Positions 6,131 to 63,072 of a stretch of DNA of 64,000 bases are shown here, piece by piece. The stretch spans positions 1 through 64,000 of IMG/VR virus record IMGVR_UViG_3300033463_000075; one strand, 5' to 3'. The notes under the pieces are model-generated. The model made no database searches and was not told the origin of the DNA. It worked only from the letters and a program-made list of their open reading frames with translations. How positions within the stretch are numbered: the stretch's first letter is position 1; every line of letters starts with the position of its first letter. This stretch comes from a virus. Lineage: Duplodnaviria > Caudoviricetes. The position numbers and the translations under genes were made by a program.

Positions 6131-6544
6131 CTAAAATTTCATTCGCTTTTCTCTGTAGTCGATCAGATGCTCTTGGGGTCTTTCTTCTCCAGCTAAGATG
6201 TTTACTAAGTTTCCGCTAAGTAAGCAGTAGCAGTAAAATTCATCTAATATATCATGAGTAAGCTCTTGCTCTTTTGTGTAAAATTTAATACAAGTATCCA
6301 ACTGATAAACACCACCTACTGTGATAATGTCATTGTTGTTTCCTTCACTTACATCTATCAGATACTGCTTATACATAGCTTTGTGTGCTTTCTTGATAGC
6401 TTTGATAACCTTACGCATAGTATGGTAATATTCCACAACAAAAGCAGCTTGAGATCAATTCTTTATGAACTCAAACTTGGAATGCTCGCCTTTTATTGCT
6501 CTTGCTATTAATTCTGTAATTTCGTCTTTATTATTTGCCATCAT
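6131..6544 (-). CDS. hypothetical protein (137 aa with TGA=Trp at codon 30)
   Basis: ATG at 6544 is in frame with track ORF 6131-6436 through one TGA (6455-6457). Confidence 0.6.
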
Positions 6545-6575
6545 TATATTATACATTATTTTTATTAATAAAAAT

Positions 6576-6608
6576 AAAAACCTGGTCCGTCGACAACCAG
6601 GTTTCTTT
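6576..6608. terminator. intrinsic terminator hairpin AAACCTGGT/ACCAGGTTT
   Basis: Inverted repeat flanked by A/T tracts, downstream of 6693-8141. Confidence 0.65.
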
Positions 6609-6692
6609 GTTGCATCTGATAGGAGGTGTTTCAGATGCTCATTATATTATACAATGTCAAATTTGAAATTTTAGTAATTTCGTTTAAATTTT

Positions 6693-8141
6693 TTAAAATG
6701 CATTAAATGGGTCTATTTCAGCTTCCTCATTTAATGTTAAATTCTCTGATTTGTTTTCTGTAGCTAATTCAGAATTTTCTTCTGCTTCTTTTTGAAATTC
6801 AGAGTTGTTTAGTGATTCTTTAGCTTCTTCTTTAGGCTCTTCTGGTAATTCTGGCAATTCTGAAACTTCGGCAGTTTCGTTTTCCTCTTCCTTAGGCTCT
6901 TCTTCTTTAGCTTCAGGTTCATCAGTAACTACATCTTTAATAGCTTCTGGAAGATCTTTGTCTAAAGTAGCTTCAGTTTCTTCTAAATCCTTCTTAATGT
7001 CATTAGCAATTAGCTCATTATCAGCTTTTAGAAGATCTTTTTCTAATTCTGCTTTCTTAGCAGTTAAAAATGCAATATAGTCATTATATAAACCAAGCTT
7101 TTTATCAAGATCAACTTCTTTTTCAATAGCTTCCTTGAAGTATTCCTCTGTAAGTGGCTTCTCAAGTGGCTCTTTCTTCATTAAGCAGTCTAGTGGCTTT
7201 TCATCTTCTGAGTGTGTTACTACTTTATTTGGTGCTTGGCAGTCTACTACTGCATTATCAATACCTTTTAGTTCTTGAGTGCTCTCAACTGGAGGATGTT
7301 CTTCATTAACATGCTCTTCTAGTGATTTATCGTTATCAGTTTCGTCAGTAAGTAGTCTTACTTCTGCTACACCATCATATAAGCCATATGGATATTCTGG
7401 AAAGTTAGCTTCCATTTGTGCATATGCTTCTTCATCGTTTTGTGCCATTACTGATCCGATTACTCTACCATCAAAAATACATTCATATTCTTTATCACCA
7501 ATATCTTCAACTATAGGTTTGATGCCTGCTTCATGTGCTCTCATGTCAGTTCCATCTGTAACTTCTACAATTTCTGGCTCTTCCAATTCAAATTTAGTAA
7601 TTCTTGGGTCATCATATTGAAGATCAGTTGGATCTTTATCTACTAAATCTAAATTTGTTCCTTGATGTGAAGTAAGTTCTTGTCCACAAATAGGACAAAT
7701 GTAGCCAACATCTAGCTTTTTACAGTCAGCTTTAGGGAAAAGACCAAAGCAAACTTTGCATTCTACTTGATCTTCATTTTCTTCTAAAGCCTCTACCATG
7801 TCTACATAGTCAATATCGACATCAGTGCCATCAGCTTCTACAGGGTCACCTGGAATATCAGCACTAATACCATCAGCTGTAATAGCAAAGACAGATTCAT
7901 TAACACCTTCTGCACACTTGGTATAAACTATTTCTTGACCTTCCATAACTGGGAAACCAGTATCATCTGGAACATCATAGTAGTCAGCCCTAACTGCAGT
8001 GCTTAATCCTGTCTTGGCAAATTCCTCATCAGCATAAGCTTTAGCATCATCAAAGTTTTCGAAACCATAACCTAGTGTAACATTTACAAGCTTATTCTTA
8101 GCTGCATCAAATTTCAAAACATTGTAATCAGTTGTTTTCAT
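6693..8141 (-). CDS. acidic late protein with zinc ribbon; putative prohead core/internal head protein
   Basis: Very Glu/Asp-rich, CKVC...CPIC, many L-x-E motifs, late-promoter motif upstream, shares a 31-aa module with 46277-48496. Confidence 0.55.
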   Translation of the reverse strand: MKTTDYNVLKFDAAKNKLVNVTLGYGFENFDDAKAYADEEFAKTGLSTAVRADYYDVPDDTGFPVMEGQEIVYTKCAEGVNESVFAITADGISADIPGDPVEADGTDVDIDYVDMVEALEENEDQVECKVCFGLFPKADCKKLDVGYICPICGQELTSHQGTNLDLVDKDPTDLQYDDPRITKFELEEPEIVEVTDGTDMRAHEAGIKPIVEDIGDKEYECIFDGRVIGSVMAQNDEEAYAQMEANFPEYPYGLYDGVAEVRLLTDETDNDKSLEEHVNEEHPPVESTQELKGIDNAVVDCQAPNKVVTHSEDEKPLDCLMKKEPLEKPLTEEYFKEAIEKEVDLDKKLGLYNDYIAFLTAKKAELEKDLLKADNELIANDIKKDLEETEATLDKDLPEAIKDVVTDEPEAKEEEPKEEENETAEVSELPELPEEPKEEAKESLNNSEFQKEAEENSELATENKSENLTLNEEAEIDPFNAF

Positions 8142-8236
8142 TTTTATCCTCTCAGTTTTTTTATAATAAAAAAAGATAGACTAAACTATCACATAATTTA
8201 GCCTATCTAAGGAGGTGTATTATGAAAAAAGCAAAA

Positions 8237-8911
8237 TTAATTAATCCATTTTATAGTTGGATCACCTTGGTAATCAGCACTAAAGATGAACCATGCATAA
8301 CAAGCAGCTGATCCAATCTTCTTCTTATTACCGTCTTTATCTAACTTAAAACTGCCATCTTCATTCTTTTGATAACGCTCATCATTTTTATAACAAGCAA
8401 CTCTCTTTGAATAAATATACACAGTTTCTAATTGTTTTCTTGAGAATATCTTCTCGGCTCTTTCTTGTCCTTCTAAAAATTGTATCTTCAAGAACAAAGC
8501 CATTTTGTGACCTGGTTGTAAAGCCTTCAAAGCATGCTCTGCAAATTCAGTTTGACACATATAAGGTGGGTTAGTAATAACATCATTGTTAATTACAGTA
8601 TATTCCTTAAAGAAGTCAACTCCTGAAATTCCATATCCATGATCATATAAGTCAGTGGAAATAACTACCTTACCTTTTGCTTCTAAAGCTTTAGATAGGT
8701 TGCCACTTCCGCAACAAGGCTCAAGTATTGTTTCCCCGAATTCTTCTCTTGCTAATAAATCGTTTATACAGTCTGGGTCAGTTGAATAGAAGTCAGTAGC
8801 TTCTCTCTCATCTTTGCAATGATTACTTGCTCCCATTAACCTAAACAAATCTTCTGATGTATGTGCCATTCTGAAATTCCTCCAATTTCGTTCGTCTATA
8901 ATAATATACAC
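8237..8911 (-). CDS. DNA amino-methyltransferase (N6-A/N4-C)
   Basis: EPCCGSG SAM-binding motif I and NPPY motif IV. Confidence 0.85.
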   Translation of the reverse strand: MYIIIDERNWRNFRMAHTSEDLFRLMGASNHCKDEREATDFYSTDPDCINDLLAREEFGETILEPCCGSGNLSKALEAKGKVVISTDLYDHGYGISGVDFFKEYTVINNDVITNPPYMCQTEFAEHALKALQPGHKMALFLKIQFLEGQERAEKIFSRKQLETVYIYSKRVACYKNDERYQKNEDGSFKLDKDGNKKKIGSAACYAWFIFSADYQGDPTIKWIN

Positions 8912-8944
8912 TGCTACTAAGGCAAATTTACCAAATTTCGTTAA

Positions 8945-9349
8945 TTATTTTAGTAGCTTACAGTTATATTTACTCCATAGGTTTCGCATAGTCTCTACTG
9001 ATACTGGATCAGCATCTGGGTCTAAGTCATAGCAGAATAGCTCTACTCTTTGGTCTAAATCATATGGTCTTACGTCTTCAAACTCTAACCAGATAGCTAT
9101 GCTGCCATCAGGTCTTTCAAATTTGCCATAGGCTTTAGCAAATGCTGGGGCTTTTTCTAATAGCTTTTCTAGCTTAACACTAATTTCGCCTGCAGCATCT
9201 GAATCAATGTTGTCAGCTACTCTTAGTTCAAGTATCGCATTGTATTCACCTGATGGTTTTGAAATCTTCTCAATTTCATAAGCACAGAAATCCTTTCCAA
9301 AGATCTCTTTAGTATATACTTCGAATCTTTCTACGTGATAAGCAGCCAT
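8945..9349 (-). CDS. hypothetical protein (134 aa)
   Basis: ORF track; TAATG overlap with upstream gene. Confidence 0.75.
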   Translation of the reverse strand: MAAYHVERFEVYTKEIFGKDFCAYEIEKISKPSGEYNAILELRVADNIDSDAAGEISVKLEKLLEKAPAFAKAYGKFERPDGSIAIWLEFEDVRPYDLDQRVELFCYDLDPDADPVSVETMRNLWSKYNCKLLK

Positions 9350-9753
9350 TATTTAGTCTCCACTATTTCGTAGTCATACTTAAGCACTGGGTACTCACAT
9401 GCCAACTCAAGCTCTTCGTCGATGTAATCTTCTACATCTTGTGTTGATGGGTTGTATCTTACATTTACTTCAAGTGTCTCTGGTAAGCTCTTAAGAACTT
9501 CTTCTACTTTTTCACTGCTACCAACATCACTTAAGTCCCAGTCAATATTGTAAACGTTGATCTTTTGTTCTACTTCAGTAATAGTAATGTCGATATTATC
9601 ATCAAATTTAACATCCTTTACTACGCATCCATTTAACATATCTTCTAAGCTCATTTCCTTAAGCTTGTTAATTAAGTCATCCTTGTCTTTGGCACCTTCG
9701 ACTAAAACATCACTTAGCCAAACTTGCATACTGAAATCTGCATAACCTTCCAT
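9349..9753 (-). CDS. hypothetical acidic protein (134 aa)
   Basis: ORF with GGAG RBS below early promoter. Confidence 0.75.
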   Translation of the reverse strand: MEGYADFSMQVWLSDVLVEGAKDKDDLINKLKEMSLEDMLNGCVVKDVKFDDNIDITITEVEQKINVYNIDWDLSDVGSSEKVEEVLKSLPETLEVNVRYNPSTQDVEDYIDEELELACEYPVLKYDYEIVETK

Positions 9754-9784
9754 AAATAGTTCTCCTTATAGTTTCTCGCATTAT

Positions 9785-9813
9785 ATTATACGCTTTTTAT
9801 AGGCATTTGTAAA
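9785..9813 (-). promoter_or_regulatory. early promoter TTTACA-N17-TATAAT
   Basis: Direct sequence match. Confidence 0.8.
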
Positions 9814-9843
9814 CCTTTTAAAGCAAAATTTAAGTAAAATATC

Positions 9844-9982
9844 TGAAATTGTCACAATTTCGGGCTAAATAATTTAGCAAAAATGAGATTATTGTAATTT
9901 CAGAAATCTCGGTAATTTCAAAAACGAGATTATGCTAATTTCGCTAATTTCGGCAATTTCGTGTGTGTTACGCATATGCATA
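9844..9982. repeat. cluster of imperfect palindromes GARATT-N5-AATYTC plus an alternating purine-pyrimidine tract
   Basis: gaaattgtcacaatttc, gagattattgtaatttc, gaaatctcggtaatttc, gagattatgctaatttc. Confidence 0.7.
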
Positions 9983-10085
9983 AAGAAAAATAGCCAAAAT
10001 TGAGTAAATTTTAGCCATTTTTTGTCTATATTTGCATAAATTTAGAGTTTTTTGCAAATTTCAGCAGAATTTTGCAAGATTTAAG

Positions 10086-11849
10086 CTATAAATTTAGTAG
10101 AATATTGGTCATTTCACGCTTCAAACTCTCAGAAACTTGGTTAGTTTTGTGATCAATTACGTATTCTGCTAAGTCTTTCTTGTAAGTAGCTATATCATGA
10201 ACCCTTTCATCTATAGTATCTTTGCAGATTAAAGTGTAAATAAATGCAGGTCTATCATTATTAACTCTGTGTATTCTGTCATGTGACTGAGCATTTTCAG
10301 TATAATTCCACTTCTCATCTAAGCAAATTTCATATGCTGCTGCATTTAAAGTATGTCCTGTACCCATAGAATCGTGAGTACAAAGTATGATTTTAGTGTT
10401 TGGATCTGTCTGGAACTTGACTTTATTAGCTTCTCTCTCATCTGCTGAGTTATCACCTGTGCAAACTAGCGGATTATAAGACGCTAAAAGATCAGCTAAC
10501 TGATAAACTGGCTCTTTAAAAGTAGACATTACTACTACTTTCTCACCTTTATCAGCTAATTCTTGAGCTAATTCTACACATCGGTCTATCTTAGAAGACA
10601 TTACTGGGTTAGTTGTTAGTATTCCTGGGCAGGCAGTAGCTTGTCTAAGTCTTGTAGTAAGTGCTAATAGGTTGTTACTGTTAAGCTCTATCTTATCTAC
10701 TTCCTCTTTAACGCCATCTACAATAGCATCATAGAAGCGTCTGTGCTCATCTGACATATCTACTAGCTCATAGATCAGTGTCTTCTCTGGTAAACCTTTG
10801 ATCTGCTCTTTAACTCTTCTTACACTACAGTTATCGATCTCTTCCTGTACAGCATCTAAGTTCTTGTAGCCTACTACTTGAGAGCTTGCAAAGCCACCGA
10901 AGACACAGTGTGCGCTCTTGTAGCCTGTAAGTGTGCTATTATCCACACCTATCCAGTGCAAAGGCAAGTAAGCATTAACAGGGTTAGATGTTATCAGTGT
11001 TCCTGTAGCAGCTACTAAATAGTCAGCAGTAAGCTTAAGTAAGTGATCACCCTGGGTAGAGCTTTTGTTAGAACACTTATGTACTTCATCTACAGCTATC
11101 ATTCCAAACTTATTAGGATTCTTCTTGGAATTGTAAGCTTCAATAAAATCAGCTGAACGTAATGTCTCGATGTTAGTAATGATGAAGAATTCTTCTATAG
11201 GTCTTCTTAGTTCATCTATTCTGTCTTTAACTGATCCTATTCTATGTGTTCCTCTTCTAGTCACATATTCGCCAAGTATTCTTACGCTTAAGTCACTGAA
11301 CTTATTAATCTCTGCCTTCCAGTTAGACTTCACTGAATTTACTCCACATATGATGAAGCAGTGATCTATTAAACCTCTCTTGTGTAAGGTCTCGGCTAAC
11401 TGAATAATTGTACAGGTCTTTCCTAAACCCATGTCATCTAGTAGCAACCACTTGTTAGTATTAAGTCCGTAGTTAATTGCCATCACCTGATGTGCTAAAG
11501 GTTTAAGCTTGAAACTATTGTACTCTTCTTGAGTTAAATCCTTGTCGCCGTACTTGCACTCAGAAAGATCAACTGGTTTTGAAATGTCGATCTCCTCTTG
11601 CTCTAGTCTTGGTCTAATGATGCTTTCATCTTGAAGCTCTAGCTTAATGTCATCTATTAAAGTCAGGCTGTCTAACAACATAGCTAAGTCACTTATGCTA
11701 CACTCTCATAACTGTGCTTTCTTATGATAGTATGCCAAAGGTAATGCCTTCAAAGCATTTACAACATCTGGGTTATATTCAGACTTAACTATTAAGCTCG
11801 TTAAACCTGAAACCTTTTGGGGTGGAAATATCTCAAAGATCTCTATCAT
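10086..11849 (-). CDS. SNF2-family DNA helicase/annealing ATPase (587 aa with TGA=Trp at codon 48)
   Basis: DDMGLGKT Walker A, DEVH Walker B, HDRIHR motif VI; ATG at 11849 is in frame through one TGA at 11706-11708. Confidence 0.85.
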
Positions 11850-12152: not shown

Positions 12153-12244
12153 AAACTCTCTAATTCCTTTATCTCACTTATTTCAGCCATATTTCGGCTG
12201 TTAATCTGCTTTCTTTCTTTTTATTTATTTTTTCTTTGCTTTCT

Positions 12245-12345
12245 CTTAAGCTATACCGCATAGCTATATGCTTAGCTATACATATAAGCTATACTGCTAT
12301 GCTATGTATAAAGCTATATGAAAAAGCATTATATAAAGCATATAT
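12245..12345. repeat. short AGCTAT/AGCAT repeats in non-coding DNA
   Basis: At least five AGCTAT in about 70 bp. Confidence 0.6.
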
Positions 12346-12662
12346 ACATACCTCTGTATATACAATCTAACATAGTTAGATTGTGAAACTATCTATGATA
12401 GTTTCTAAAAAGAAAGAATTAATTACGTAGTAATTATAAGAAAGAAAAAGTGAGCTATTATTTTGCTTTCTTTATTAGCTTTAAAAGAAGCTTTTAAATA
12501 CTAATGAAGCTTCGCTTCATTATATTATACAATGCACATATAGCTAAAATAACAGTTTTTACAAAAATACTTCAAAAATTTTTTTTACCTATAAAAAGAT
12601 CTTCAATAAAAAAAGAATTATTTCGAAAGAAATTTGCTGTTATGAAAGAGAGAAAAAGAGAG

Positions 12663-12808
12663 AAAACGAAATTATCAAAATCTCGGCAATTTCAGAAAGC
12701 TCAAAAACGAAATTGTCACAATCTCGCCTGCTAAAAACGAAATTATCGCAATTTCGCGCATAATTATGCATACGCGCACACGCACATATGAAATTGTCAC
12801 AATTTCGG
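12663..12808. repeat. second cluster of GAAATT-N5-AATYTC palindromes
   Basis: Four clear copies; the 20-nt tgaaattgtcacaatttcgg is identical to that at 9844. Confidence 0.75.
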
Positions 12809-13022
12809 CCTCGTTATTGGCTTTTTAAGGCTTTTTCAGCTATTCGGCAAGATATTTTGCTTATTTTCAGCTATTTTTGCGATTTTGAGCCGAATTTTGA
12901 GCCCAGGGATAGCTTCTACCGCCTGTACGTTATGCTGTACGTACGAATTTCTGCTGATCAGAAGGCATTTTTTCTTCTGCCTTAAATATTTTTTAACTTT
13001 TTTCTGCAGAAAATGAAAAAAA

Positions 13023-13088
13023 CTAAATGAATACTGTATAATATAGTGATGCTGAGAGGAATATAATAAGAATTCAAATGTAATTCAT
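13023..13088 (-). CDS. 21-aa hydrophobic peptide MNYIWILIIFLSASLYYTVFI (TGA=Trp at codon 5)
   Basis: Perfect AGGAGGT RBS 5 nt upstream, TATAAT just above it, ends TAG. Confidence 0.4.
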
Positions 13089-13344
13089 AACAAACCTCCT
13101 TGTATATTATAAAGCTAATGGCACAATGCAGCTTCGGCCGTGCGGTTAACCAGTAGCTAAATAAAGCTGACCCACTCGGCAGTGAGCAGCTATCAAAAAA
13201 AGTGACCTGGTTTTTTCACCTCCTTTTTATAAATTATTTCCCAGGTCCTCCTCCCAGCATTAAACTAAGACACCTCCTATAGAGCTTTAAGTAAAAACTA
13301 TCAATACCTCCTAGATAGAAAAATACTTAGAGCTCTTTCTTTTT
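13049..13344 (+). ncRNA. candidate sRNA with five CCUCCU (anti-Shine-Dalgarno) motifs, at least two in hairpin loops
   Basis: TATAAT at 13037-13042; stems GACCTGG/CCAGGTC, CTATC/GATAG and AGAGCTTTAAGTA/TACTTAGAGCTCT (G-U only on + strand); terminal U-tract. Confidence 0.5.
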
Positions 13345-13459
13345 ATTCGCGGAGCATAAGAATAAAAAAATATTTTCTAAAAATATTTCAATATCTTCAA
13401 TCCCTATATATAGCATAAGGTCTAGCATAGTATGCATTAGGTTGCAGTATAAGCATATA

Positions 13460-13880
13460 ATAGCTTCTGCCTCAGCTTATATATAGCTTTGGTCCCAAGC
13501 TTTCCCTTAGCTTCTGCCCGGTGCTTTGCCCTATGCTTTCGCCTTTGGCATGATGCGAATCTGGGCATGGCTGATGGCGGCGGCTCTGACGACGGCTAAC
13601 CCTGGTGCTTTGGGGCAGGGCTAACGTGCACGCGCACGGACCGACTGCTAAATATGTCTACGGGCGGCAGCAAGACGGCAGTACGCGGCTAAGTGCGCCT
13701 GGGGCCCTATGCTTTGGCATGAAGCTTTTGCACTAAGCTTTCGACTGCTTTTGGTATAGCTTTCGGGATAAGCTTTCGTCCTATGCTTTTCCCTATAGCT
13801 AAGTATAACTGCTTGATATTTCGGCTTCTATTCTGGGAATCGGCCTTCGGCCTTATATGCTTTACTTATGCTTATTATGC
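13460..13880. repeat. two arrays of (A/T)GCTTY repeats about every 11-13 bp flanking a GC-rich core (candidate origin or packaging site)
   Basis: About 20 units; core 13545-13705 with palindrome CGTGC-ACGC-GCACG. Confidence 0.55.
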
Positions 13881-13949
13881 TCTATATATAGTTGGTTCAT
13901 TAATGCAACTTTGCAAAAAATTTTTTTATTGCTGCTGGGAAAAAGAGCA

Positions 13950-13984
13950 AAAAATAAGGACCCTAAATTAATAGGATCCTTTTA
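13950..13984 (-). terminator. intrinsic terminator after the 574-aa gene
   Basis: AAGGATCCTA/TAGGGTCCTT stem then T-tract on the minus strand. Confidence 0.7.
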
Positions 13985-14006
13985 TCTTTGATTTTAGCTA
14001 ATTATT

Positions 14007-15731
14007 TTATGGTCTATAATAATACATTGTAACAACTTTTGGAGAAGCAGTAATTAAATCGCTTTGTGCATATTCTAACATTTCATATCAAAGCAATATA
14101 TCTGAATTCATTACTTCCATATAAAGTCCAATTTGTCCGTAAGCTGTATTACCACTCTTTCGTTTCAAGTATTCACCACTTCAACCTTGTGTTAAATAGC
14201 CTGTATATGATGCTCTCATAGACGATGAGATCATTCCATCATTTATCTCTAAATAGCAATAGGTAGGCGCTGGATTGACATAACTATTACTATGCACTTT
14301 AATTAAACCACTTCTATTGCTTGAACCTGAAAAGATGCTTATCTCGGTTTTACTCATAGTATAATAGCTACAAGTAATTGTTGATGTTATTTGTTTTCAA
14401 TCTGATGCAAGACTACTATTTGCTCGTATGGTAATAGTGCTGCCATAACTTTGTAAATCTCCAAGTGAATAATAATTTGTAGCTACTGTAGCAAAATCTC
14501 ATGATTGATAGTCTGTCCCATTAGTGCTTGATATACTATAGCTTGACCAAGCAAATCTATTTGGCTGAGCATTTCTTGTCAATGTATTTTCAAAACCTGC
14601 ACCAGCTCCTGCTTCTGGCACTTTAGCATTATTATATCCTATGTGGGCGCTGGCATCAACATTAGCTACACTACTTGTTGCTCAAGTTAAACCTGAGTCA
14701 GCTGTAAATGATACTGTATACTTACGTATAGTAAAATCACTATTTTGTTTTAAAAGTCATAATCAACAATCTTGAGACGCATTATAATATCAAGAACTAA
14801 GCATTGTATTTTCTACAACATATGATCCAAAATAAGGATCATTACCATTTATAGTTGGTACATTATTATAGAAAGTACCCTTTAATGCTGATGAGCTTTT
14901 TGTGCTATGTGTAGCTTTTGTATAGGTGCATTTTACACTGTTATTATGTGTAGCCGCTAAATTGCTAGTAGCTGTTGGATTTATAGCTGTAAAAGTTAAA
15001 GTAGCAGCAGCACGCTCACAATCTGGGTCATAACAAATAAGTTTTTCTTGAAATTCAGCTGGATTACTTAGCGTCTTTCAATAATCATTAATTATACCCG
15101 TCTTATATTCTCTATATCTAATTTTATAAACAAGCGATATAGTTAAATCAGTAGTAAGCGTTGTTATACCACTAGAAATTCCTGAGATACTATCTAAATA
15201 GCTAATAGCCTTAGCACTATCTGCGGCAGATATTAGAGATAGTCCTGTAATATCTGTAGCACCATCAAACTGCACTTGATAAGAATCTGGAAACATCTTT
15301 TTTAGGGCAGGATTTTTGTTAATCACGCATTCATTTGCTATAGTGCCGTAATCAAAAGTTAAACTATATGAATATACATTCTCACTTCCATAATATGGCT
15401 TGGTAGCATAACTTGCGCATCTTCCAGAGGTAGATAAAATTTGCTCACGCACAAATGATATAGTAGTTCCATATGGTAAATAGTAAACTGCAGAAGTTGG
15501 ATATGTTATGCTTTCATTATAACCTTTATACTCATCACCATTTTCTCAGTTATATGTAGCATTAATTGTTAACTTTAATGGTTTATGTCAAATAGCAGTA
15601 GCAGTTTCACTTGCTGGGTTTAACTTTATTTGTAATACCTTAATATCTGCAGCAGCACTATTACCATCTATATATTTGATAGCTGTTAATTCTGTAGCTG
15701 TATTACTTTCAAAGATTTGTTCGTCAGCCAT
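14007..15731 (-). CDS. 574-aa Ser/Thr/Asn/Tyr-rich beta-strand protein, probable virion fibre or decoration protein (11 TGA=Trp)
   Basis: Translated by hand: no TAA/TAG for 1725 nt; AAGGAG RBS; the track shows only a 124-aa piece. Confidence 0.75.
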
Positions 15732-17342: not shown

Positions 17343-17425
17343 ATATGCTCCTTTTATATTTATTGGTATCATTATAATATACATTATTCTATAATAAAAC
17401 TGAAACAGTTATATAAAAATTTTAC

Positions 17426-17456
17426 AAAAAAGACAGACCTTATTTAGTCTGCCTTT
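17426..17456. terminator. intrinsic terminator
   Basis: AAAGACAGAC/GTCTGCCTTT hairpin. Confidence 0.55.
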
Positions 17457-17475
17457 ATATATGCTTAAGTAATTA

Positions 17476-18186: not shown

Positions 18187-18205
18187 TTTTTATTCTCCCT
18201 CTTTT

Positions 18206-18694: not shown

Positions 18695-18766
18695 TTTTAT
18701 AACCTCACAAAAAGTAATCGTATAATTTAGCATATTTATGCAAGAAAAAAGTAAGCATCTTTCAGC

Positions 18767-19159: not shown

Positions 19160-19162
19160 AAT

Positions 19163-19764: not shown

Positions 19765-19772
19765 ACTTGCCT

Positions 19773-50241: not shown

Positions 50242-50254
50242 ATTAAATTATACA

Positions 50255-54019: not shown

Positions 54020-54694
54020 TTAATCTAATTTTGCATCTATAAATTTTCCGTCTTCTACCTTGCCTTTTTGCCATTTGCCATATTTATTTTTATATAGGCC
54101 AAATGTTTCAAAAGTGAAAAAAAGTAGGTCTGAACAGTCATCAAAAGTAGCTTTTACATTATTTAGCAGTTTTATTTGACTATCACTCGCAAACTTAACA
54201 CCCAATAAACCAGAGCAGTATTCAAAAGCTGTCGGGTGTATAAAGTTCATATCTGGCCCAAATGTTATTGATAGCAGGTCTTTGCAGCCCTTAAAAGTAA
54301 AATCACGTAGCCTTGTGCAGCCATCAGGTATTATTATCTTTAATAGTCCTGTATGAGCAAAAGCATACATACCAATATCAACTGCCTTTCCATCTGTGTC
54401 TTCACTAAAGAAAAATCTTCTTAAGCTTTTGCAGCCACTAAAAGCCATAACAGCTATTTTGTGTAGCGTCTTAGTGTTAGATAAGTTGACATCAGTTAAT
54501 CTTGTGCAGTCTTTAAAGGCTCTGGCACCTATCCATTCAAGCTTAGATCCTGCCTCTAATGATATTTCCTCTATATTAGTGTTGTTATTAAATGCTTCTA
54601 ATTCTATAGCTTCAACCTCAGCTGGTATAACAACCTTAGTCTCAATACCATTATAAGCATATAATATGTTGTCTCTTATATCAAAATCACGCAT
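54020..54694 (-). CDS. BspA-type LRR (LRR_5) protein a
   Basis: IGxxAFxxCxxL repeats; shared N-cap and C-cap; no TGA. Confidence 0.9.
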   Translation of the reverse strand: MRDFDIRDNILYAYNGIETKVVIPAEVEAIELEAFNNNTNIEEISLEAGSKLEWIGARAFKDCTRLTDVNLSNTKTLHKIAVMAFSGCKSLRRFFFSEDTDGKAVDIGMYAFAHTGLLKIIIPDGCTRLRDFTFKGCKDLLSITFGPDMNFIHPTAFEYCSGLLGVKFASDSQIKLLNNVKATFDDCSDLLFFTFETFGLYKNKYGKWQKGKVEDGKFIDAKLD

Positions 54695-54707
54695 TAGTTA
54701 TATTCCT

Positions 54708-55388
54708 TTACCAATCTGGTGTATAGTTATCTGGTAGCTTATCAAGTATCCATGTATCATGAGCATATTCTTTAACAAGCTGTATATTTCCAAATCTTAA
54801 GTATCTTATGTTTGGACATCCTTTTAGTCAGTCTAAGTTTTTATCAAGTAGTTTTATATTCTCTCTGCTCTTAAAAGCTATTAGTTGAAGCTCTTTACAG
54901 TCAATAAAAGCTGTATCATCAATGTAGTCTATTTCAGGACCTAGATATACATTTTTAAGCTTTCTACAATAAGCAAATGTAGTAGTCTTAATTGTATGGC
55001 AATTATCTGGTAAAACTATTTCTTCTAATTTAGAGCAATTTATAAAAGCACCAAGTCCAAGGTCTAGCTCTTCTTTAGGTGGGTTTGTAGAAAAATAAAT
55101 ACGTTTTAAGTCACAGCAATTATTGAAAGCATACATGCTAATATGTGTTAGAGGTGCATGCTCAAGATATATTTTTTCAACATTTAAGCAGTTAGCAAAA
55201 GCATCTGTACATATTTTTCAAAGCTTAGAGTTTGGCTCAATATCTACACTATGTATTTGTATGCAGTCTTTAAATGCATTTTGTGCAATTACTTCGGTTT
55301 TTGCTGGAATATAAACACCATGATTTTTGCTTTTATAGTGTAGTATCATTGTGCCATTATTTAATGTGTCAAAATCTGTATTAGACAT
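54708..55388 (-). CDS. BspA-type LRR protein b (226 aa, TGA=Trp)
   Basis: In-frame extension of track ORF 54828-55136. Confidence 0.85.
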
Positions 55389-55391
55389 TTA

Positions 55392-56054
55392 TTACCTCAC
55401 ACTAAAATTACCTTTTTCATCTCGCTTAGCATAAAACCATTTGTTTTCAGCCGGGTTTCTAATAAGCCCAAATGTAGCAAATGTAATAAAGTCTGGTTTA
55501 GCTGAGCCCAATATTCTAGCAGGGTTTTCAAATAATCTTACTGCATCATCACTCGCAAACATGATATACTTTAAGTTATCACAGCCATTAAAAACATCGT
55601 CATCAAATTCAATGTTGTCAGTGGCATCAAATATAGCTGTCACTAAGTCTTTGCAGTCTTTAAATAATTCATGCGGAATCTTAGTAACTTTTTCTGGTAT
55701 TCTAATATTTATTAACCCAGTCTCCCAAAATACATTTGGTTTTAATGTAGCTAATGTTGGTGGTAGTGTCATAGTTTCTAATTTTTCGCAACCTGCAAAA
55801 GCACAACCATCTATATAAGAAAGCTTAGTTTCATGTAAATGCACAAATCTTTCCAAGTTCTTACAGTCTGAAAAAGCTCTTATATCAATTTCTTCTAAGC
55901 CCTCTGGCAAGATTACTTGTTTTATATAATTATTTTGCTCAAAAGCTGACTGACCAATTCTTACAACATTGGCAGGTATTACTACAGTAGGGTCTTTGCC
56001 ATTATACTTAAATAGTGTTCCATCTAATGTTATTCTAAATTTTTGTTCTGCCAT
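55392..56054 (-). CDS. BspA-type LRR protein c
   Basis: LRR_5 repeats; no TGA. Confidence 0.9.
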   Translation of the reverse strand: MAEQKFRITLDGTLFKYNGKDPTVVIPANVVRIGQSAFEQNNYIKQVILPEGLEEIDIRAFSDCKNLERFVHLHETKLSYIDGCAFAGCEKLETMTLPPTLATLKPNVFWETGLINIRIPEKVTKIPHELFKDCKDLVTAIFDATDNIEFDDDVFNGCDNLKYIMFASDDAVRLFENPARILGSAKPDFITFATFGLIRNPAENKWFYAKRDEKGNFSVR

Positions 56055-56057
56055 TTA

Positions 56058-57131
56058 TTAAAACCTCATAATCTTTCAAGGATCTTTGTCTGTTGTGTTA
56101 TATAGTTTCTTATTAGACTGATCTGGTCTAAAGAAGCCAAATGTTTCAAAAGTAATTTCATTTAACATTCTGCAGCCCTTAAATAAGTCAGTAGCTTGCT
56201 CTATTATATCTACTTGAGCATCTTTTGTAAATACTAATTTAGTTAGATCAAAACAGTTTGCAAAAGCTGCATCTGCAATATAGTCTACCTTATCTGGTAT
56301 CACTATACTTTTTAATCTTGTGCAGTATTCAAAAGCATGCTCTTTAATATCAGTTAATACACTGCCTGCTTCAATAAATACTCCTGTTAAGGCAAGGCAA
56401 TTCTTAAATGCTCTTTCACCAATAGTGTCAACAGATTGTGGTATAATTATTGACTTTAATTCAAAACAGTCTCTAAATGCGCTATTGTCTATAAATGTTA
56501 ATGTATCAGGTAGCTTTACATCTGTTAGATGACGACTTTCTAAAAATGCTGCAATACCTAAGCTTTCTATAGGGCTGTTTATAACTACTTTTTCAGCTCT
56601 GCAATGTTGGCATAGTCTTGGTGGAAAATCTGTTATATCAGCATTTATTGTTAAGCACTTTGTTTTTAAGTGGTCAAATGCTTGTCCCCCAATAGCAGCT
56701 ACACTATCAGGTATAAGCACATCTTCTGTAAAGGCTGTTCATTTAAAAGCTTCATTACCAATTTTAATTAAGTCAGGTCCAGCATTAAACTTACCCAAGC
56801 TGGCACATTGATAGAAAGCACTATTGCCAACATCAACTAATTCTTTTGGTAGGCCTTCGATTTTTAAGCTCTTACAGCCATAGAATGCATCTTCAAGTAT
56901 ATGTATAACGCTATCTCAATTTTTAATTGTTGTTAAGTTCTCACAACCCTTAAAAGCATTTTCTCCAACTGTTGTTACATGATTGCCAAAGTCTACGCTT
57001 TTAATTGTAGTATTAGGATAAAAAGCACCATTGGCTATTATCTTAACTTCATCAGGTAAAATAATATCCGTGTCTGTGCCTTTATAATCTATTAAGGCTC
57101 CATTTAATATTTCAAAATCTGTATTAGTCAT
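56058..57131 (-). CDS. BspA-type LRR protein d (357 aa, TGA=Trp)
   Basis: Track ORFs 56916-57131 and 56076-56720 join in frame. Confidence 0.85.
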
Positions 57132-58366
57132 TATCTTGAAACCTCTTGTGTATCTTTAATAGTTATATTTCTGCCATCAAATACACCAATTGTATCGGAG
57201 TACCTATTGCCAGAGTTATTATATTCAACTGCTTTTATGCCATCATAACCAAGATTTTTAGCTATATCTCTGAAAGCATTTGAGCGTAAAATAGTGTATA
57301 CATATAAGTCTTTTTTGCCTTTTACCATTTCAGCTGCAGCATCACTTACTAGCTTTTTAGTTTCAGCTAAGCTAATATCAAGCTTACTTATTACTTTTAG
57401 AAAAGCCTCTGAATAATCATTGCCTACAAATACCTTGTAAGAGCTATCACCTACATCTAAAAGTTTTAGCTTCTTTATATTGCAAGTATATAAATAGCCT
57501 TTGTCAGAGTCGCCTAAAGCATAAGACTTAGCATATAGCTTATCATCTGTTAGCCAAACTGTATGGTTATTGTTAGCAAAGCTTTCTTTATATTTGCTAC
57601 TGCCATTATAATATACAGGTCCGTCTAGAGCAGCTCCAATACCTGGAATAGTAGATAAATCTAAAGCTTCATCTACATCTTCTTTTATTGGAATGACTTT
57701 TCAAGTGCCAGTACGGTTTGATAAAGCAAAAGTCTTAAATCTTATCATATATAATTTATTACAGCCCTTAAAAATTTTTTCTGGTTGTGCCACTAAGCCT
57801 ATTTGTTTGTCTGACTCAAAGCGAACTACACCAAGGTTTTCGCAGCCTTCAAAAGCATCTGACCAAATGCTGTCAACATCAGCCGGAATATGAATGGCTT
57901 CAAGTTGCTTACAATTCGCAAACATTTTAGCATCTATTATATGACAATTTTCTGGCCAATCAAAGAACTTAATACCGGTGCCTGCAAAAGCAGCTTTCAT
58001 GATACATCTGGGTGTATCATGATATTGTCAGTCCCATTTTATAGTAGATAACTTTTCACAGCCCTCAAAAGCAGAATAACCAATATTAACAGTATTAGGT
58101 CTTAGGTATACAGCTGCTAAATTAGGCATCTCATTACAAGAAAGTTCATTAATTTGTTCTGTATATTTAAAGTCTATTCTCTTTATCTTCTCTTTTCTGC
58201 TAAAACAGCCTGTTTCAATAGTTGAAATTGTATCAGGAACATATACAGAAGCTGTAGGTAAATCTTGTGAGCCATCTCAACCAATGGCTCTATCTTTGCC
58301 ATTAATGCCCGTCCCTTTACTTATTACTCATGGCCCTAAGTTAATAGTTTTACCTACGTTGCTCAT
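57131..58366 (-). CDS. BspA-type LRR protein e fused to a C-terminal ADP-ribosyltransferase-like (ART-PolyVal-like) domain (411 aa)
   Basis: In frame through TGAs; C-domain VYYNGS...VWLTDDKLYAKSYA...YLYTCNI...LGYDGIKAVE...TIGVFD. Confidence 0.7.
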
Positions 58367-59307
58367 TAATTATCCACCTTTATTCATCTCTTTAATAAGC
58401 TATCTTTTACTAACATAAAATCTGGGAACTCAAGTATTCTAAGACTTGGACATTCTGTAAAGATTTTATCAACTCTATCCAATAGCTTTATTTGTGTATT
58501 ATCCTTAAATACAACATGCTCTAAACTCTTGCAGCAATTAAAGGCATCTTCACCAATTATTTCTACTTTAGCTGGAATAACAATAGCTTTTATTTTCTCA
58601 CAGTTGCAGAAAGCATTTGCACCTATTATTTTTAGTTCTGACTTATTTGCATCATCTATCTTGAAGTAAGTCATATTAAAACAGTTCATAAAAGCACCTG
58701 GGTATAACATTGTAGCTGTATTTGGCAAGTCTATATGGTCTAAGTTTTTGCAGTTAAAGAAAGCGTTAATACCAATTGTTTTTAATGTTTTTGGTAGGTG
58801 TATTGTTTCCATAACTGAGCAGTCATAGAAAGCATTTGCTCCAATATATTCTACAGTAGACCCAGTTAAATTAAATTCGTCTATGCGTTTACAGTCATAA
58901 AAGCAGCCCGATGGCACCGAAGAACAACTTGCTTCAAAATCAACTGAAGTAAATGTTAAGCATTTTGCAAAAGCACTTTGCCCAATTGATTTTACAGTTT
59001 TTGGTATAACTTGGTTATAAGGTGATGAGTTATCCACATCAATAAGTTCTAGTTTTTTACAACCATAAAAAGCATTATCTCCAATTAGGTCAACAGTCTT
59101 TGGTATTACACAGACTTTTAGCTTATCGCAGTCATAAAAAGCTGAGCTACCAATTGTTCTTAAGCCATCAGGCAAAATTGCATGCTGTACCTCTGTGCCA
59201 GTAAAAGCATCATAGCCAATAGCTTCAATATCAGCTGGAACTCTGACAAGAGTAACATCTCTGTCAGCTTTTTCATATATCTTTTTTTGAGTGTCTATTT
59301 GTGGCAT
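58366..59307 (-). CDS. BspA-type LRR protein f (313 aa)
   Basis: LRR_5 repeats; terminal LLKRWIKVDN uses TGA. Confidence 0.9.
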
Positions 59308-60227
59308 TATTTATCTACCTTTACCCATTTTCTTAATATTAAATCTTTTTTTAGTGCGAAGCTTGGAAAATCTATTTCAGCTAATTTTTCACAGCCAAAA
59401 AATATCTTATCACATTCACTTAATATATTTATATTTCTGTCATCACCAAAAGATACTCTTTCAAGATTATGACAATTCATAAATGCGCCTCTTCTTATTT
59501 CAGCAATATTTTTAGGGAAGTTAACTTCTGTTAAAGCATTACAACCAGCAAAAGCATATTCACAAATAGCTAACCCTCCACTATTATCGTCACCCATAAA
59601 TTCCAGCGTATGTAAGCTTCTGCAACCATTAAAAACACTTGTGCCAATATAGTTAACCTTTGCTGGAATAGTTATATGTGTTAAGGATTCGCAGTCAAGA
59701 AAAGCTTGACTATAAATTCTGATTAAATTATTTGGTAAGTTAATAGCCTTTAGGTTTTTGCAGTTGTGAAATGCAAAGCCACTAATAGTTTCAGCATTAA
59801 AAAGCTCAACATCATTTAAGCTTACACAACCTTCTCAACAGCTACTTGGCACAGTTTGAATATTAGCTTCACACCAAACATTTGTTAAGCTTTGACATTC
59901 TCTAAAAGCATTATCACCAATCTTTTCTACTGAGTCAGGAATAATGCCTGTATAGTTTAATTTTGTGCAGCCATAGAAAGCACTATTCCCAATTTTTGTT
60001 AGCTCATGTCTTGTGCCCAATGTTATGCCAGTTAAATTTTCGCAGTGATGAAAGCAATCGTCTTCTAGCTCTTTTACACAAGTTGGCAGCTTTACAAACT
60101 TAATTCAGCTCTGACCCTCAAAACAGTCTGAAATTATTTCAGCAGGTTCATTCACCATATTTACTTCTGTTGCTTGGCCTGAGTAAGATACTAATTTATG
60201 GTCTTTGTCTGTTATTGTAAAATTCAT
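59307..60227 (-). CDS. BspA-type LRR protein g (306 aa, TGA=Trp)
   Basis: Two track ORFs join in frame. Confidence 0.85.
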
Positions 60228-61072
60228 TAGTTAAATATAGTCTCCCATTTCTTTTCGTCTGCTTCTTTTCTAGCATAAGCATGCCACTTGTCATCATCTT
60301 CTTTAACAAAAGCTTTAGATGGAAACGCTAATCTATGCAAGCTGTTACATCCACCAAAAATGTCATTAACTCTATATAATATTTTCATTTGGTCATCTGA
60401 CATAAATTCGACTTCAGTTAATCTTGTGCAATTCTCAAAAGCTCTAGTTGCAATACTATCTACTTTTGCAGGTATTTGTATTCAGTATAAGTCGCTACAG
60501 TTAGCAAAAGCACTACCACCAATATGTTCCAGTGTTTCAGGAAGGCCCACACGGTTTAACTTCTTACAGCCATAAAAAGCTCCAAGTCCAATTGATGTTA
60601 TAGGGCTATTTCTTAGGCCAGCAGTTGTTAAATTAGGGCAGTTCATAAATGTTTGAGACTGTATGACAGACACATTACCTAAATTGTATATATTTTTAAT
60701 GCCAGACTTATTGAAAGCATCTCCACCAATAGTCTGTAAAATTTGTGGAAAATCTAAAGATATTTCAAGCTTAGTGCAGTTTCTAAATGCATGAGGCCCA
60801 ATAGTTTCAAGATAGTCTGGAAAATGAACGTCAAATAAGTTCGTGCAAAGCTCAAAAGATTGTCTATCTATCTCTGTCATATCATTAGGCAAACAGATTG
60901 ATTGTACTTTCTTACCTTTGAATACATCAGTATTTATAGCAAGTACGTCATCTGGCACATCTACTTGGTAGTCCCATGCATGTTGTTCAAAATTTGGATA
61001 AACTTTAAACAATGTATGACTATCATTTATCATATATGTATAATGTGTGCTTCTAACGGCGCGATCTGACAT
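60227..61072 (-). CDS. BspA-type LRR protein h (281 aa, TGA=Trp)
   Basis: Read-through to TAA at 60227; late promoter at 61104. Confidence 0.85.
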
Positions 61073-61187
61073 CTTTAATTATCTCCAAAAAGTTGTTGCT
61101 ATATAATTTAGCTTAAAATACTGCTCACACCATAAAAAATATGAGCCTAAAATTAGCTCATATTATTATCAAAATTTTAAGTATGTA

Positions 61188-62138
61188 TTAGTCTTTTTTA
61201 TTAAATACTCATTTACCAAAAGACTTTTCAAAAGAGCCTGATGGGAATTCAAATTTATTAAGTGAGTCACAGTTAACAAATATCTTATTAGCATCATTTA
61301 GCCTATCTTTTAACTTATCTGAGCTAAATTTGACAGTTGTTAAACTACTGCAGCTATTAAAAGCATTGTCCTCAATTCTCATATTTCAAGCATCTGTCAA
61401 GAAAGTAATATTGTGAAGGTCAATACAATTTTCAAAAGCACCTTCTTCAATAATATACGTTTCTTTTGGTAATGTAAGGCTAGTTAAACTTACACAACTT
61501 TTAAATGCTTTCTTACAAACTACTGAAAGATTTCTTGGCATAGATATATATGATAGCGCACTACAGCAATTAAAACAGTTGTCTCCTATAAATATTAGTG
61601 AATCTGGCAAGTATACATTTTCTAAGCTTGTGCACATAAAGAAAGTCCAACTTGGTAAGTCACCATCATCGGGCTTGCCCATTCAAACAACACTTTTTAA
61701 GCTTAAGCAGTGGCTAAATATACTATGCTCTATATCAGTAACCTTTTGATGCACAACAATGCTTTGTAATGACTTGCAACCTTTAAAAGCTTTTGCTCCT
61801 ATTGTTGTTAATTTATTTGGTAAATGATTTTCAAGTATGTTTTTGCTAGGCATTGCATGGTGTATATAGTTTAATGATTCGCAGTCTTCAAAAGCGCTTT
61901 CTCCAATAACTGTTCAGTTACCATCTTTAACATATCTAACTACCTTCAAATTTTTGCAGCCAGTAAAAGCACCTCTACCAACACTATGCACTGAAGCAGG
62001 AATAAATACAGCTTCTATAGTATAGTTATCTTTGAAGGCCATATCAACAACATCTATTACACCATCTGGTATGACAACATCTTTTTCGTTGCCAGTATAT
62101 TTAAGTAATGCATTATTTGATATAACAAAATCACTCAT
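61188..62138 (-). CDS. BspA-type LRR protein i (316 aa, TGA=Trp)
   Basis: Track ORFs join in frame; ends TAA at 61188. Confidence 0.85.
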
Positions 62139-62148
62139 CTATAACTCC

Positions 62149-63072
62149 TTACTTTTTATATGCTTCTCATTGATTAGTGCCTGGCACTCTATGAAAAGCA
62201 TGCCTTGGAAAATCTATTTTAGCTAATTTTTCACAGCCATTAAATATTTCAACAGTATTAGCAAGCATTGACATTTGTGCATCTGAGCCAAAGCTTACAC
62301 TAACTAAGTTTTTACAGTTAGCAAAAGCATTTTTTTCAATAACTTGTACTGAAGCAGGTATATGTATATCTATCAAGTTTGTTTTAGCAAAAGCCTCTGT
62401 GCCTATCGCCTCAAGAACAGAATCAGCTTCAAAATTAAGCCTTGTTAGGTCTTTACACTCAAAGAAACTACAAATGCCTATAACTCCAGTTGCTTTTGGT
62501 ATTGTAAGCTCTACAAGACCACTATTCTTAAATGCTTCGCTGTCAATTACTCTAAGTGCATTTGGTAGCTTGATAGTTTTTAACGCCCCACAGTACTGAA
62601 AAGCATTACGCCCTATCTCATCCATTTTATCTGGTAAATCTACAGCTTTTAATTGCTCACAAAAGCTAAAAGTATATGTAGGCAATACTGTTAGTTGTGT
62701 TTCGCTAAGGTCAGCATGTTTAAGTTCTGAGCAGTAATGAAAAACTTGATCACCTAAGCTATTTATTGTGCTAGGCATAATCATATATTGTAATTTACTA
62801 CATTGTTGGAAAGCGCCTGTACCTATCGTAGTCACACCAGTTCTTAATATAGCTCTTTGTAAGTTTGAAGCAAAAGCAAATGCAAAGCGACCTATATCAG
62901 TGCCATTATAATAAGTATCAAAATATTTGATGTCAAGATTATTTTTCAAAGCATCATCAGCTACTCCTGTGCAGCCGCGAGGTAGTGAAAGTCTACCAGT
63001 TGGGCTCTTATAATAAGTTAGCTTACCACTACTATTTAATCTTATAACTTCAGCTGGTTGTGTGTTAGGCAT
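62149..63072 (-). CDS. BspA-type LRR protein j (307 aa)
   Basis: LRR_5 repeats; terminal NQWEAYKK uses TGA; late promoter at 63099. Confidence 0.9.

Follow-up and report, generated by a model that had tools for sequence, protein, structure and literature searches.

The window, i.e., the whole analyzed stretch of 64,000 nucleotides (positions 1 to 64,000 of IMG/VR record IMGVR_UViG_3300033463_000075), contains numerous genes that are open only when TGA is read as a sense codon. This raises the questions of which amino acid UGA encodes in this phage, whether the changed code is brought by the phage or shared by its host, and why TGA is used in some genes and absent from others. According to the analysis presented here, UGA encodes tryptophan, and the window probably belongs to a T4-like jumbo phage of the cattle gut in which this meaning is conferred by a phage-borne code switch, with the partition of TGA among genes being set by constraints of timing and dosage.

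The phage and the meaning of UGA

The window lies within a contig of 82,163 bp (GC 32%), which corresponds to 41% of a T4-like jumbo phage genome (CheckV completeness 41%), the complete size of which is estimated at about 200 kb. The sequence was contained in two sequencing runs from a single bovine gut sample, which is a possible source of the DNA; none of the data sets listed as containing it was an RNA data set. A Gp23-type capsid protein, a Gp20 portal, and a prohead protease were found (PF07068, PF07230, and PF03420, respectively), and the contractile sheath, tube, hub, and baseplate wedge were matched by PHROG; the contig carries the Gp23/Gp20 morphogenesis set of a T4-like myovirus. Contigs of 100–136 kb bearing tRNA(UCA) were considered as the missing half of the genome and rejected, since they were devoid of the window's helicase and belong to other phages.

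The sequence-only reading had claimed that about 30 genes need TGA as sense and had proposed a comparison of coding density under codes 4 and 11. Estimated from ORFs selected greedily and without overlap along the 82,163-bp contig, coverage was 81.6% under code 11 (123 ORFs, mean 182 aa) and 93.6% under code 4 (89 ORFs, mean 288 aa), i.e., it rose from 82% to 94% with TGA as sense, while reading TAG as sense gave no comparable gain on the same contig. Between positions 6131 and 63072 (minus strand, as are all features below), the code-4 ORF table contained 36 ORFs with in-frame TGA, namely, 31 credible genes open only with TGA as sense, in agreement with the earlier count, and five small doubtful ORFs located at about 6.5 kb and in the 12.2–14.0 kb gap. 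In this table, TGA was never a stop in the contig; it should be noted that stops limited to TAA or TAG are built into code-4 ORF calling. No TGA was seen near the end of any TGA-free gene. TGA encoded about 40% of the phage's tryptophans and was spread evenly along the length of genes.

The identity of the residue was assessed at conserved positions. The 954-aa FrhB-like and polysaccharide pyruvyl transferase (plus GT8-like) enzyme (51143–54007; PF04230, PF04432, and PF04422) contained 15 TGA and 4 TGG codons (15:4; codon counts below are likewise TGA:TGG). In an alignment with 42 distant homologues, its TGA site W215 (GDFWG) corresponded to Trp in all 42, W158 in 41, W367 (GSDQIW) in 34, and W131 in 31, and Gly occurred at none of the aligned TGA sites. 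A relative of this protein (62%) sits on a 273-kb contig; a scan of viral contigs with peptides of the protein gave zero pattern matches, perhaps because of Trp in the peptides, which is often TGA in relatives. All five motifs quoted in the sequence-only reading (GSDQIW, SDLTIGDFWG, WHDQ, VGTWLDGK, and YWWIIA) indeed had TGA at W. For the ten LRR paralogues (54020–63072; PHROG 35892 and 18805), which share a C-terminal cap Trp in the MAFFT alignment, the terminal Trp codon was TGG in five, as had been stated, and TGA in four rather than five; the tenth paralogue had Lys at the cap position and TGA a few residues further on. Swaps between TGA and TGG were also found at aligned Trp sites of the baseplate and tail genes relative to the complete related phage G003.

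That TGA stands for a residue other than Trp (Gly under code 25, Cys, selenocysteine, or Ser), or that pseudogenes or assembly errors account for the interrupted genes, is extremely improbable. The ARAGORN bacterial table labels tRNA(UCA) as SeC, and a long extra arm resembling that of class II tRNAs occurs in some phage tRNA(UCA) genes; however, TGA aligned with invariant Trp and never with Gly, alternated with TGG in both paralogues and orthologues, the tRNAs had Trp-type bodies and G73, and the 116 sites are not explained by any SECIS-type logic. The interruptions were always TGA and never frameshifts, which argues against pseudogenes and assembly errors, as does, for the latter, the presence of the sequence in two runs. 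Thus, the gain in density, the TGA codons at conserved Trp sites, and the TGA/TGG swaps strongly support reading UGA as Trp, the first two being the expected signs of recoding.

Distribution of TGA among genes

The use of TGA among genes was uneven far above chance, as the sequence-only reading had held (G = 184.6 for the partition, with a mean of 92.5 and sd of 11.4 in shuffled data; 0 of 20,000 shuffles as high), and the counts given there were reproduced for nrdD (0:10), the 574-aa protein (11:1), the tail sheath (0:4), and the tail tube (0:2). TGA was present in 40 of the 85 genes (47%; 38% in the complete relative G003), and long gene blocks were strictly TGA-free although rich in TGG; a block structure of TGA-free and TGA-bearing genes was also observed in G003.

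The early and nucleotide-metabolism blocks were strictly TGA-free. They included nrdD, a homing endonuclease (0:2), and an nrdG-like gene (0:3), located at 2007–5528 (PHROG 25611 and 3339), the last being assigned by homology to genes found after bacterial nrdD, as well as a block of nucleotidyltransferase/kinase-like genes and unknowns (16290–22153). The exception among replication genes was the DNA helicase (10086–11849; PHROG 62), with one TGA at the conserved W48, which is TGG in G003 according to pairwise alignment. Thus, the early and replication blocks are compatible with the standard code except for one helicase, which also needs the switch, and the rule that early genes are TGA-free is not absolute. 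The Ser/Thr/Asn/Tyr-rich 574-aa protein (14007–15731) stood alone among TGA-free genes. An HNH endonuclease (23024–23554) had 2:0, and the genes of the baseplate and tail module (27220–39202; PHROG baseplate wedge), which includes a 1278-aa protein, mostly had 1–5 TGA each; the 574-aa and 1278-aa proteins and several of the baseplate proteins matched no family in Pfam or PHROGs. The baseplate hub (0:0), tube, and sheath followed at 39419–42658 (PHROG 150, 4542, and 23). Two glycosyltransferase genes (49393–51133), one of GT8 type (8:3) and the other with a weak GT25-like match (4:0), had orthologues in recoded relatives that were also TGA-rich (31:14 and 21:22). The 3′ part of a homing endonuclease gene of 483 aa (63224–64000, continuing to 64675 of the contig; PHROG 3339 and 559) had 0:9, and its orthologues had 0:7 and 0:9; this gene adjoins the major capsid gene.

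TGA use was unrelated to the general A/G third-base preference (Spearman 0.05), and the frequency of the A-ending third base was 0.73 in both gene classes, which disfavors expression-linked codon bias. The TGA-richest genes were near the TGA share of ~73% expected from AT pressure alone, and even the 574-aa protein (11 of 12) was not significantly above it (binomial estimate, p about 0.12). Consequently, selection appears to act against TGA in some genes rather than for it in others, and the adaptive gate suggested in the sequence-only reading was not borne out. A regulatory reading, that of Borges et al. (bioRxiv 10.1101/2021.08.26.457843; 2022), holds that TGA is positively selected in late or dangerous genes such as those for lysis, nucleases, and surface-modifying enzymes, and blocks their translation until a suppressor is made; for this phage, it seems unlikely. 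It agrees with the TGA content of the HNH endonuclease, the glycan enzymes, and the isolated 574-aa gene, with the TGA-free state of the code-change genes of G003, and with the preferential recoding of lysis genes and a homing endonuclease reported by Borges et al. However, no gene significantly exceeded the AT-pressure share, the two other homing endonucleases (0:9 and 0:2) were TGA-free, no lysis gene was recognized in the window, and the pattern is explained by constraint alone. Early or late promoter class was also considered as a predictor of TGA use and rejected: the GCTAAATTA motif was enriched (15 vs. 7.8 expected) and occurred upstream of TGA-free and TGA-bearing units alike, with no clean split.

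The most abundant virion proteins avoided TGA despite their location in late modules. The major capsid gene had 0:38 across eleven recoded relatives, and the abundant virion proteins together had 9:56 against 214:161 in other late genes (Fisher 4 × 10−11, for pooled related genomes that are phylogenetically non-independent); in G000 alone, the corresponding counts were 0:13 and 34:37 (p = 0.001). Near relatives had 0:3 and 0:3 in the tube and 1:5 and 1:4 in the sheath, and the AT-richer G003 had 2:2 and 5:2, respectively. Since the sheath, tube, and protease/scaffold genes of G003 contain TGA, the dosage rule is graded rather than strict. Thus, the earlier suggestion that TGA is confined to low-stoichiometry parts held insofar as abundant virion proteins avoid it, whereas clade-wide this was true of the major capsid protein only.

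The base after TGA was A in 43% of cases, compared with 26% after TGG and 34% after A-ending Lys, Glu, and Gln codons; this +4 bias was consistent across five genomes, the comparison set being one without a true code-4 organism. A 3′ A is the classical context favoring UGA suppression. The avoidance of TGA in the most abundant virion proteins and the A bias after TGA both suggest live competition with a release factor. It is conceivable, with somewhat less than an even chance, that the switch is never complete, that host RF2 still competes, and that the number of UGA codons per gene acts as a dial for yield beyond a timer. Under such a dial, the highest-copy proteins would be kept UGA-free even inside late modules and the tolerated UGA codons would be selected before A; if this were true, the clade would offer graded, sequence-readable evidence of a phage living with an ambiguous codon.

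Related phages, decoding machinery, and host

The 64 related loci represent a mix of standard-code and TGA-recoded phages, some having no or few in-frame TGA (0:54 in L026, GC 35%). The recoded members were lower in GC, and the clade ranged from the standard code through light recoding at 33% GC to heavy recoding at 29% GC. Complete relatives had 17–33 tRNAs each. A tRNA(UCA) with G73 and a Trp-type anticodon loop was detected in both complete recoded relatives examined (G003 and G006), and none was found in the standard-code G002, G004, and G005 with introns allowed. In G003, a TGA-free TrpRS gene (TIGR00233, 304 bits) lies between the tRNA array and tRNA(UCA), and RF1 (436 bits) was found in G001. 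The sets of helpers in the clade differ, namely, plain tRNA(UCA) with TrpRS, tRNA(UCA) with a spare CCA-loop arm, and RF1; Lon, adjacent to TrpRS, was rejected as a general code-change partner, being limited to the G003 lineage. The statement that the window has no suppressor tRNA or release factor proved correct and extends to the whole 82-kb contig, on which no tRNA (ARAGORN codes 4 and 11, relaxed; Rfam), RF-1 domain, or class-Ib aaRS was found. Neither tRNAs nor TrpRS or release factors were found in the three nearest relatives (G007–G009), nor tRNAs in G010, all of them fragments. The decoder of the window phage is therefore one extrapolated from relatives with 57–72% capsid identity.

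On this basis, UGA would most likely change its meaning during infection through the phage's own tRNA-Trp(UCA), presumably located beside a large tRNA array in the 59% of the genome that lies outside the contig, and possibly helped by TrpRS or RF1. Genes translated before the switch would remain TGA-free, as would those for the products required in highest quantity, i.e., the major capsid gene and, in the window lineage, also the sheath, tube, and prohead protease/scaffold genes, probably because host RF2 still terminates part of the translation at every UGA. Elsewhere, TGG would drift to TGA under AT pressure, up to the ~73% expected for equivalent codons.

The sequence-only reading had left two alternatives, a phage-driven switch and a code-4 host. 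The former is favored because of the standard-code sisters, the tRNA-Trp(UCA), TrpRS, or RF1 in recoded relatives, and the TGA-free early blocks. It is very unlikely that the host itself is a code-4 organism (Mycoplasmatales-like Bacilli) which the phage follows, with uneven TGA use as an expression-linked codon preference. The low GC, the lack of TGA stops in the contig, and Bacillota-type signals together with the Anaeroplasma/Bacilli affinity of TrpRS, near lineages that include code-4 organisms, are in line with such a host. However, near-universal TGA use was not observed (38–47% of genes, against about 90% given by Borges et al. where the host shares the code), and the long TGG-rich TGA-free blocks, the lack of correlation with third-base bias, the sister phages (GC 35%) whose 54 Trp codons included no TGA, the decoding genes in recoded relatives, and the A bias after TGA all argue against it. 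It should be noted that in standard-code relatives TGA stops were found in 0–3 of about 18 genes, and their scarcity is no proof that the hosts terminate at UGA.

The host is most likely a standard-code member of Bacillota. GGAGG/AGGAG was found upstream of about 70% of starts (about 6% in controls), the nearest cultured capsids were those of Bacillus, Listeria, and Streptococcus phages, and the closest matches to the TrpRS of a relative were in Anaeroplasma and in a genome of Bacilli that seems to use the standard code. NrdD had 44–51% identity to proteins of bacterial genomes, mostly Bacteroidales, and its closest matches (48–51%) were those of Bacteroidales and the best match of all, which was on a syntenic 278-kb contig (GC 36%) binned as Christensenellaceae and probably a phage; such matches do not discriminate, and host assignment via NrdD was rejected. 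No direct link by CRISPR spacer or prophage was obtained.

Comparison with known recoded phages

The described lineage adds a T4-like phage of the cattle gut to the known TGA-recoded phages. Its contig and relatives need to be annotated with code 4, or else about a third of genes fall apart. Since the clade includes standard, light, and heavy recoding with differing helpers, the order of steps in the code change, as well as its cost in highly expressed genes, could be read by comparison within it.

The closest known counterpart, judged by features rather than by phylogeny, is represented by the TGA-recoded "Jade"-type gut phages of standard-code Firmicutes described by Borges et al., membership in their clade being defined by large-terminase phylogeny with at least 95% bootstrap. 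The common features are the genome size of complete relatives (about 200 kb), structural modules across the genome in which TGA means Trp, TGA-free replication and early blocks, the presence in clade members of tRNA(UCA), TrpRS, and RF1 (matching what Borges et al. call the "code change module"), standard-code sister phages, near-absent TGA stops, and an animal-gut source with Firmicutes-type signals. In contrast, the module of G003 is tRNA(UCA)-Lon-TrpRS without RF1, RF1 being found in another relative, the window contig has none of these genes, and neither the avoidance of TGA in the capsid gene nor the preference for A after TGA was met in the portion of Borges et al. considered here.

In crAss-like phages (TGA- or TAG-recoded; Yutin et al. 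2021, PMC7886860) and Lak megaphages, the reassigned stop likewise occurs mostly in late genes, suppressor tRNAs are phage-borne, and codes change over short phylogenetic distances. Unlike the window phage, which is T4-like and uses Shine–Dalgarno sites heavily, they have Bacteroidota hosts and a podovirus-like or megaphage architecture, and the major capsid gene of crAss-like phages contains the recoded stop and served as a diagnostic there. Phages of code-25 Absconditabacteria and of Mycoplasma and Spiroplasma also read in-frame TGA as an amino acid, but their hosts share the code and nearly all of their genes are recoded (about 90% according to Borges et al.), whereas in the window phage some blocks are strictly free of TGA and the codon stands for Trp rather than Gly. 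Thus, TGA recoding is an already known habit of gut phages, and the current picture of phage recoding is unchanged.

Gene content and the meaning of UGA

The window is the first 64 kb of an IMG/VR virus record of 82,163 bp (41% complete and without terminal repeats according to CheckV; GC = 32%). Nearly all of its genes are carried on the minus strand, and the sequence was present in two sequencing runs from a single bovine gut metagenome. A T4-type morphogenesis set was identified on this contig, with the Gp23-like major capsid protein, Gp20-like portal and prohead protease lying directly beyond the window edge, together with the tail sheath, tube, baseplate hub and wedge. Also on the contig were nrdD and an nrdG-like gene, genes for a helicase and a methyltransferase, several endonucleases of the homing or HNH type, enzymes that modify glycans and the ten LRR paralogues. 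The region at 12153-14006 (1.85 kb) held no convincing gene, its small code-4 ORFs (three TGA each) appearing spurious; within it lie a GC-rich island at about 13530-13720, numerous short repeats resembling AAGC/GAAAGC and, on the coding strand, several copies of AGGAGG. This region may serve as an origin or encode a regulatory RNA.

Greedy ORF calling without overlaps over the whole contig gave 123 ORFs with a mean of 182 aa (81.6% of the contig covered) under the standard code 11, versus 89 ORFs with a mean of 288 aa (93.6%) under code 4, in which TGA is read as Trp; reading TAG as sense brought no coding-density benefit in the same calling. The code-4 gene table contained 116 in-frame TGA and 152 TGG codons, reproduced the per-gene counts quoted in the sequence-only reading and yielded 31 credible genes between 6131 and 63072 that are continuous only if TGA is sense, close to the figure of about 30 proposed there. 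The proposal that TGA sits at conserved Trp was borne out by the alignment of the 954-aa FrhB/pyruvyl-transferase enzyme with 42 distant, mostly bacterial homologues, in which the TGA columns held Trp in 42, 41, 34 and 31 of the 42 and Gly in none. The C-terminal Trp of the ten LRR paralogues had been described as evenly split; TGG was indeed found in five, but TGA in four rather than five. TGA and TGG exchanged freely at aligned Trp sites between this phage and the related complete genome G003 (portal, baseplate and other proteins), and TGA codons were evenly distributed along gene length. The reading of UGA as Trp is as well supported as sequence alone permits. It should be noted that the LRR paralogue at 57131-58366 continues beyond its cap Trp, encoded by TGA, into an extra domain of ~170 aa, and would give rise to short and long products if UGA were only partly read.

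Uneven use of TGA among genes

When Trp codons were shuffled among genes 20,000 times, the observed heterogeneity statistic (184.6; shuffle mean 92.5, sd 11.4) was not reached once, and the strong partitioning of TGA noted from the sequence was thereby upheld. General codon bias was not its source, since the share of A-ending Lys/Glu/Gln codons was 73% in TGA-free and TGA-bearing genes alike and per-gene TGA share did not correlate with A-ending preference (Spearman 0.05; -0.05 in G003). If TGA and TGG were equivalent, this share would predict ~73% of Trp codons as TGA. The genes highest in TGA lay near this value (TGA:TGG of 15:4, 8:3, 4:0 and 11:1), whereas TGA-free genes with 9 or 10 TGG were far off it. 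Thus, selection against TGA in some genes is clear, while comparison of the richest genes with the 73% expectation gave no significant evidence of selection for TGA in others. The intergenic motif GCTAAATTA, found on the coding strand at 8194, 9870, 18723, 23587, 32782, 40415, 42709, 49311, 61104 and 63099 (minus strand), may be a phage promoter element (GCTAAATTW, 15 matches versus 7.8 expected); it occurred upstream of TGA-free and TGA-bearing units alike and did not cleanly separate these classes.

In the late modules of this phage, a TGA:TGG ratio of 0:13 was obtained for the combined genes of the major capsid protein, protease/scaffold, sheath and tube, versus 34:37 in other late genes (p = 0.001), and the same comparison over five genomes, which are related and not phylogenetically independent, gave 9:56 versus 214:161 (p = 4e-11). 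The capsid gene showed 0:38 over eleven recoded relatives, one of which is G003, where the neighbouring genes have 75-89% TGA. The sheath (5:2), tube (2:2) and scaffold (3:0) genes of G003 do hold TGA, so the dosage rule is graded. Since the capsid gene of crAss-like phages does contain a recoded stop (Yutin 2021, PMC7886860), avoidance of TGA in the capsid gene is a trait of the present clade and not of recoded phages generally.

The base following the codon was assessed in TGA-containing genes of five genomes. It was A in 43% of cases after TGA, 26% after TGG and 34% after A-ending Lys/Glu/Gln codons, with T depleted after TGA and the A bias seen in all five genomes. Classically, suppression of UGA is favoured over termination when the next base is A. 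Taken together, the dosage pattern and the A after TGA suggest that UGA in infected cells remains subject to competition from a release factor.

Decoding machinery of related phages

A capsid protein query of IMG/VR revealed 64 related loci, with complete genomes of 200-233 kb carrying 17-33 tRNA genes in a single array. Recoded relatives had a GC content of 0.29-0.35 versus 0.35-0.38 in standard-code relatives, among which L026 was plainly standard-code (0 TGA in 54 Trp codons). Both complete recoded relatives examined encoded a tRNA(UCA) that has G73 as its discriminator and a Trp-type anticodon loop; three standard-code relatives had none, intron-containing tRNAs also being permitted. In G003, this tRNA lies immediately upstream of genes for Lon protease and tryptophanyl-tRNA synthetase (TrpRS; TIGR00233, 304 bits), and the whole unit (7623-11155; loci L116 and L096) is TGA-free, adjoins the tRNA array and is conserved also in the viral contigs L190 and L197. 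The five further relatives checked, complete or near-complete, lacked Lon, and any action of this protease on RF2 or another host factor would be speculative. Release factor 1 (RF1) is carried by another relative, G001. Because neither the contig under study nor any of its three closest relatives, all of them fragments, includes the tRNA region, we infer the suppressor of this phage from its relatives rather than having seen it.

A scan for Trp-like tRNA(UCA) identified 39 viral contigs that carry one. A long extra arm was found in 26 of them (L102:2900-2995 in the relative G006, with a further 25 viral loci among L174-L212), its loop copying the Trp anticodon loop (UCCAAA) in 23 of the 26, and the other form, a plain 75-nt tRNA, in 13. 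TrpRS co-occurred solely with the plain form, in a single lineage (G003, L190 and L197).

Several other features of these genomes were observed. G001 (GC 50%, partly recoded, RF1 present) had no ordinary tRNA(UCA); a tRNA-like gene with a 6-nt anticodon loop (CUCAAC) was located at L097:10230-10305 of this genome, and one with an 8-nt loop (…UCAC…) at L098:9667-9755 of G002. Several tRNA genes (Leu, Glu, Gln, Asn, Pro) of G005, G002 and G004 (L100, L098 and L099) had anticodon-loop inserts of 63-123 nt and were detected by ARAGORN only with introns allowed. Phage-encoded tmRNA genes occurred at L097:4654-5038 (G001) and L103:6756-7129 (G006). The heaviest recoding of G003 fell at 50-70 kb (L105-L106), in two very large genes with 106 TGA and 39 TGG together. 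A phage-like, TGA-recoded ENA contig of 165.8 kb (L229; density rising from 0.71 to 0.90) encoded a TrpRS with 64% identity to that of G003.

Host and relation to known recoded phages

The evidence on the host is indirect. GGAGG or AGGAG was present upstream of ~70% of starts versus ~6% of internal ATG controls, a frequency of Shine-Dalgarno-type signals that argues against a Bacteroidota host. The closest cultured capsids were those of Bacillus, Listeria and Streptococcus phages, and the sequences nearest to the TrpRS of G003 came from Anaeroplasma and from a Bacilli genome of low GC, which appears standard-code with rare TGA stops in a 21-kb sample. An NrdD search for the host was uninformative, giving mixed Bacteroidales matches at about 48%. 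Contig L117 (JBJEVF010000043.1; 278 kb, GC 36%), which had been binned as Christensenellaceae, has small ORFs and shares the small-gene/nrdD/nrdG arrangement of the window; both features suggest a related jumbo phage inside a bacterial MAG. That the host itself uses code 4 is very improbable: TGA-bearing genes make up only 47% here and 38% in the complete G003, in blocks, sister phages are without any TGA use, recoded members of the clade carry tRNA(UCA), TrpRS or RF1, and TGA use has no link with codon bias.

Phage recoding reportedly received an earlier account from Ivanova in 2014. Stop-codon recoding in phages is established (Yutin 2021, PMC7886860; Borges 2021/22, bioRxiv 10.1101/2021.08.26.457843; a 2026 jumbo-phage survey). 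Borges et al. describe a 'code change module' in the TGA-recoded Jade phages of Firmicutes, and the tRNA(UCA)/TrpRS of G003 and the RF1 of G001 match this module. The phage under study probably belongs to or near the Jade clade. The phenomenon is already known, and the present phage adds one more member.
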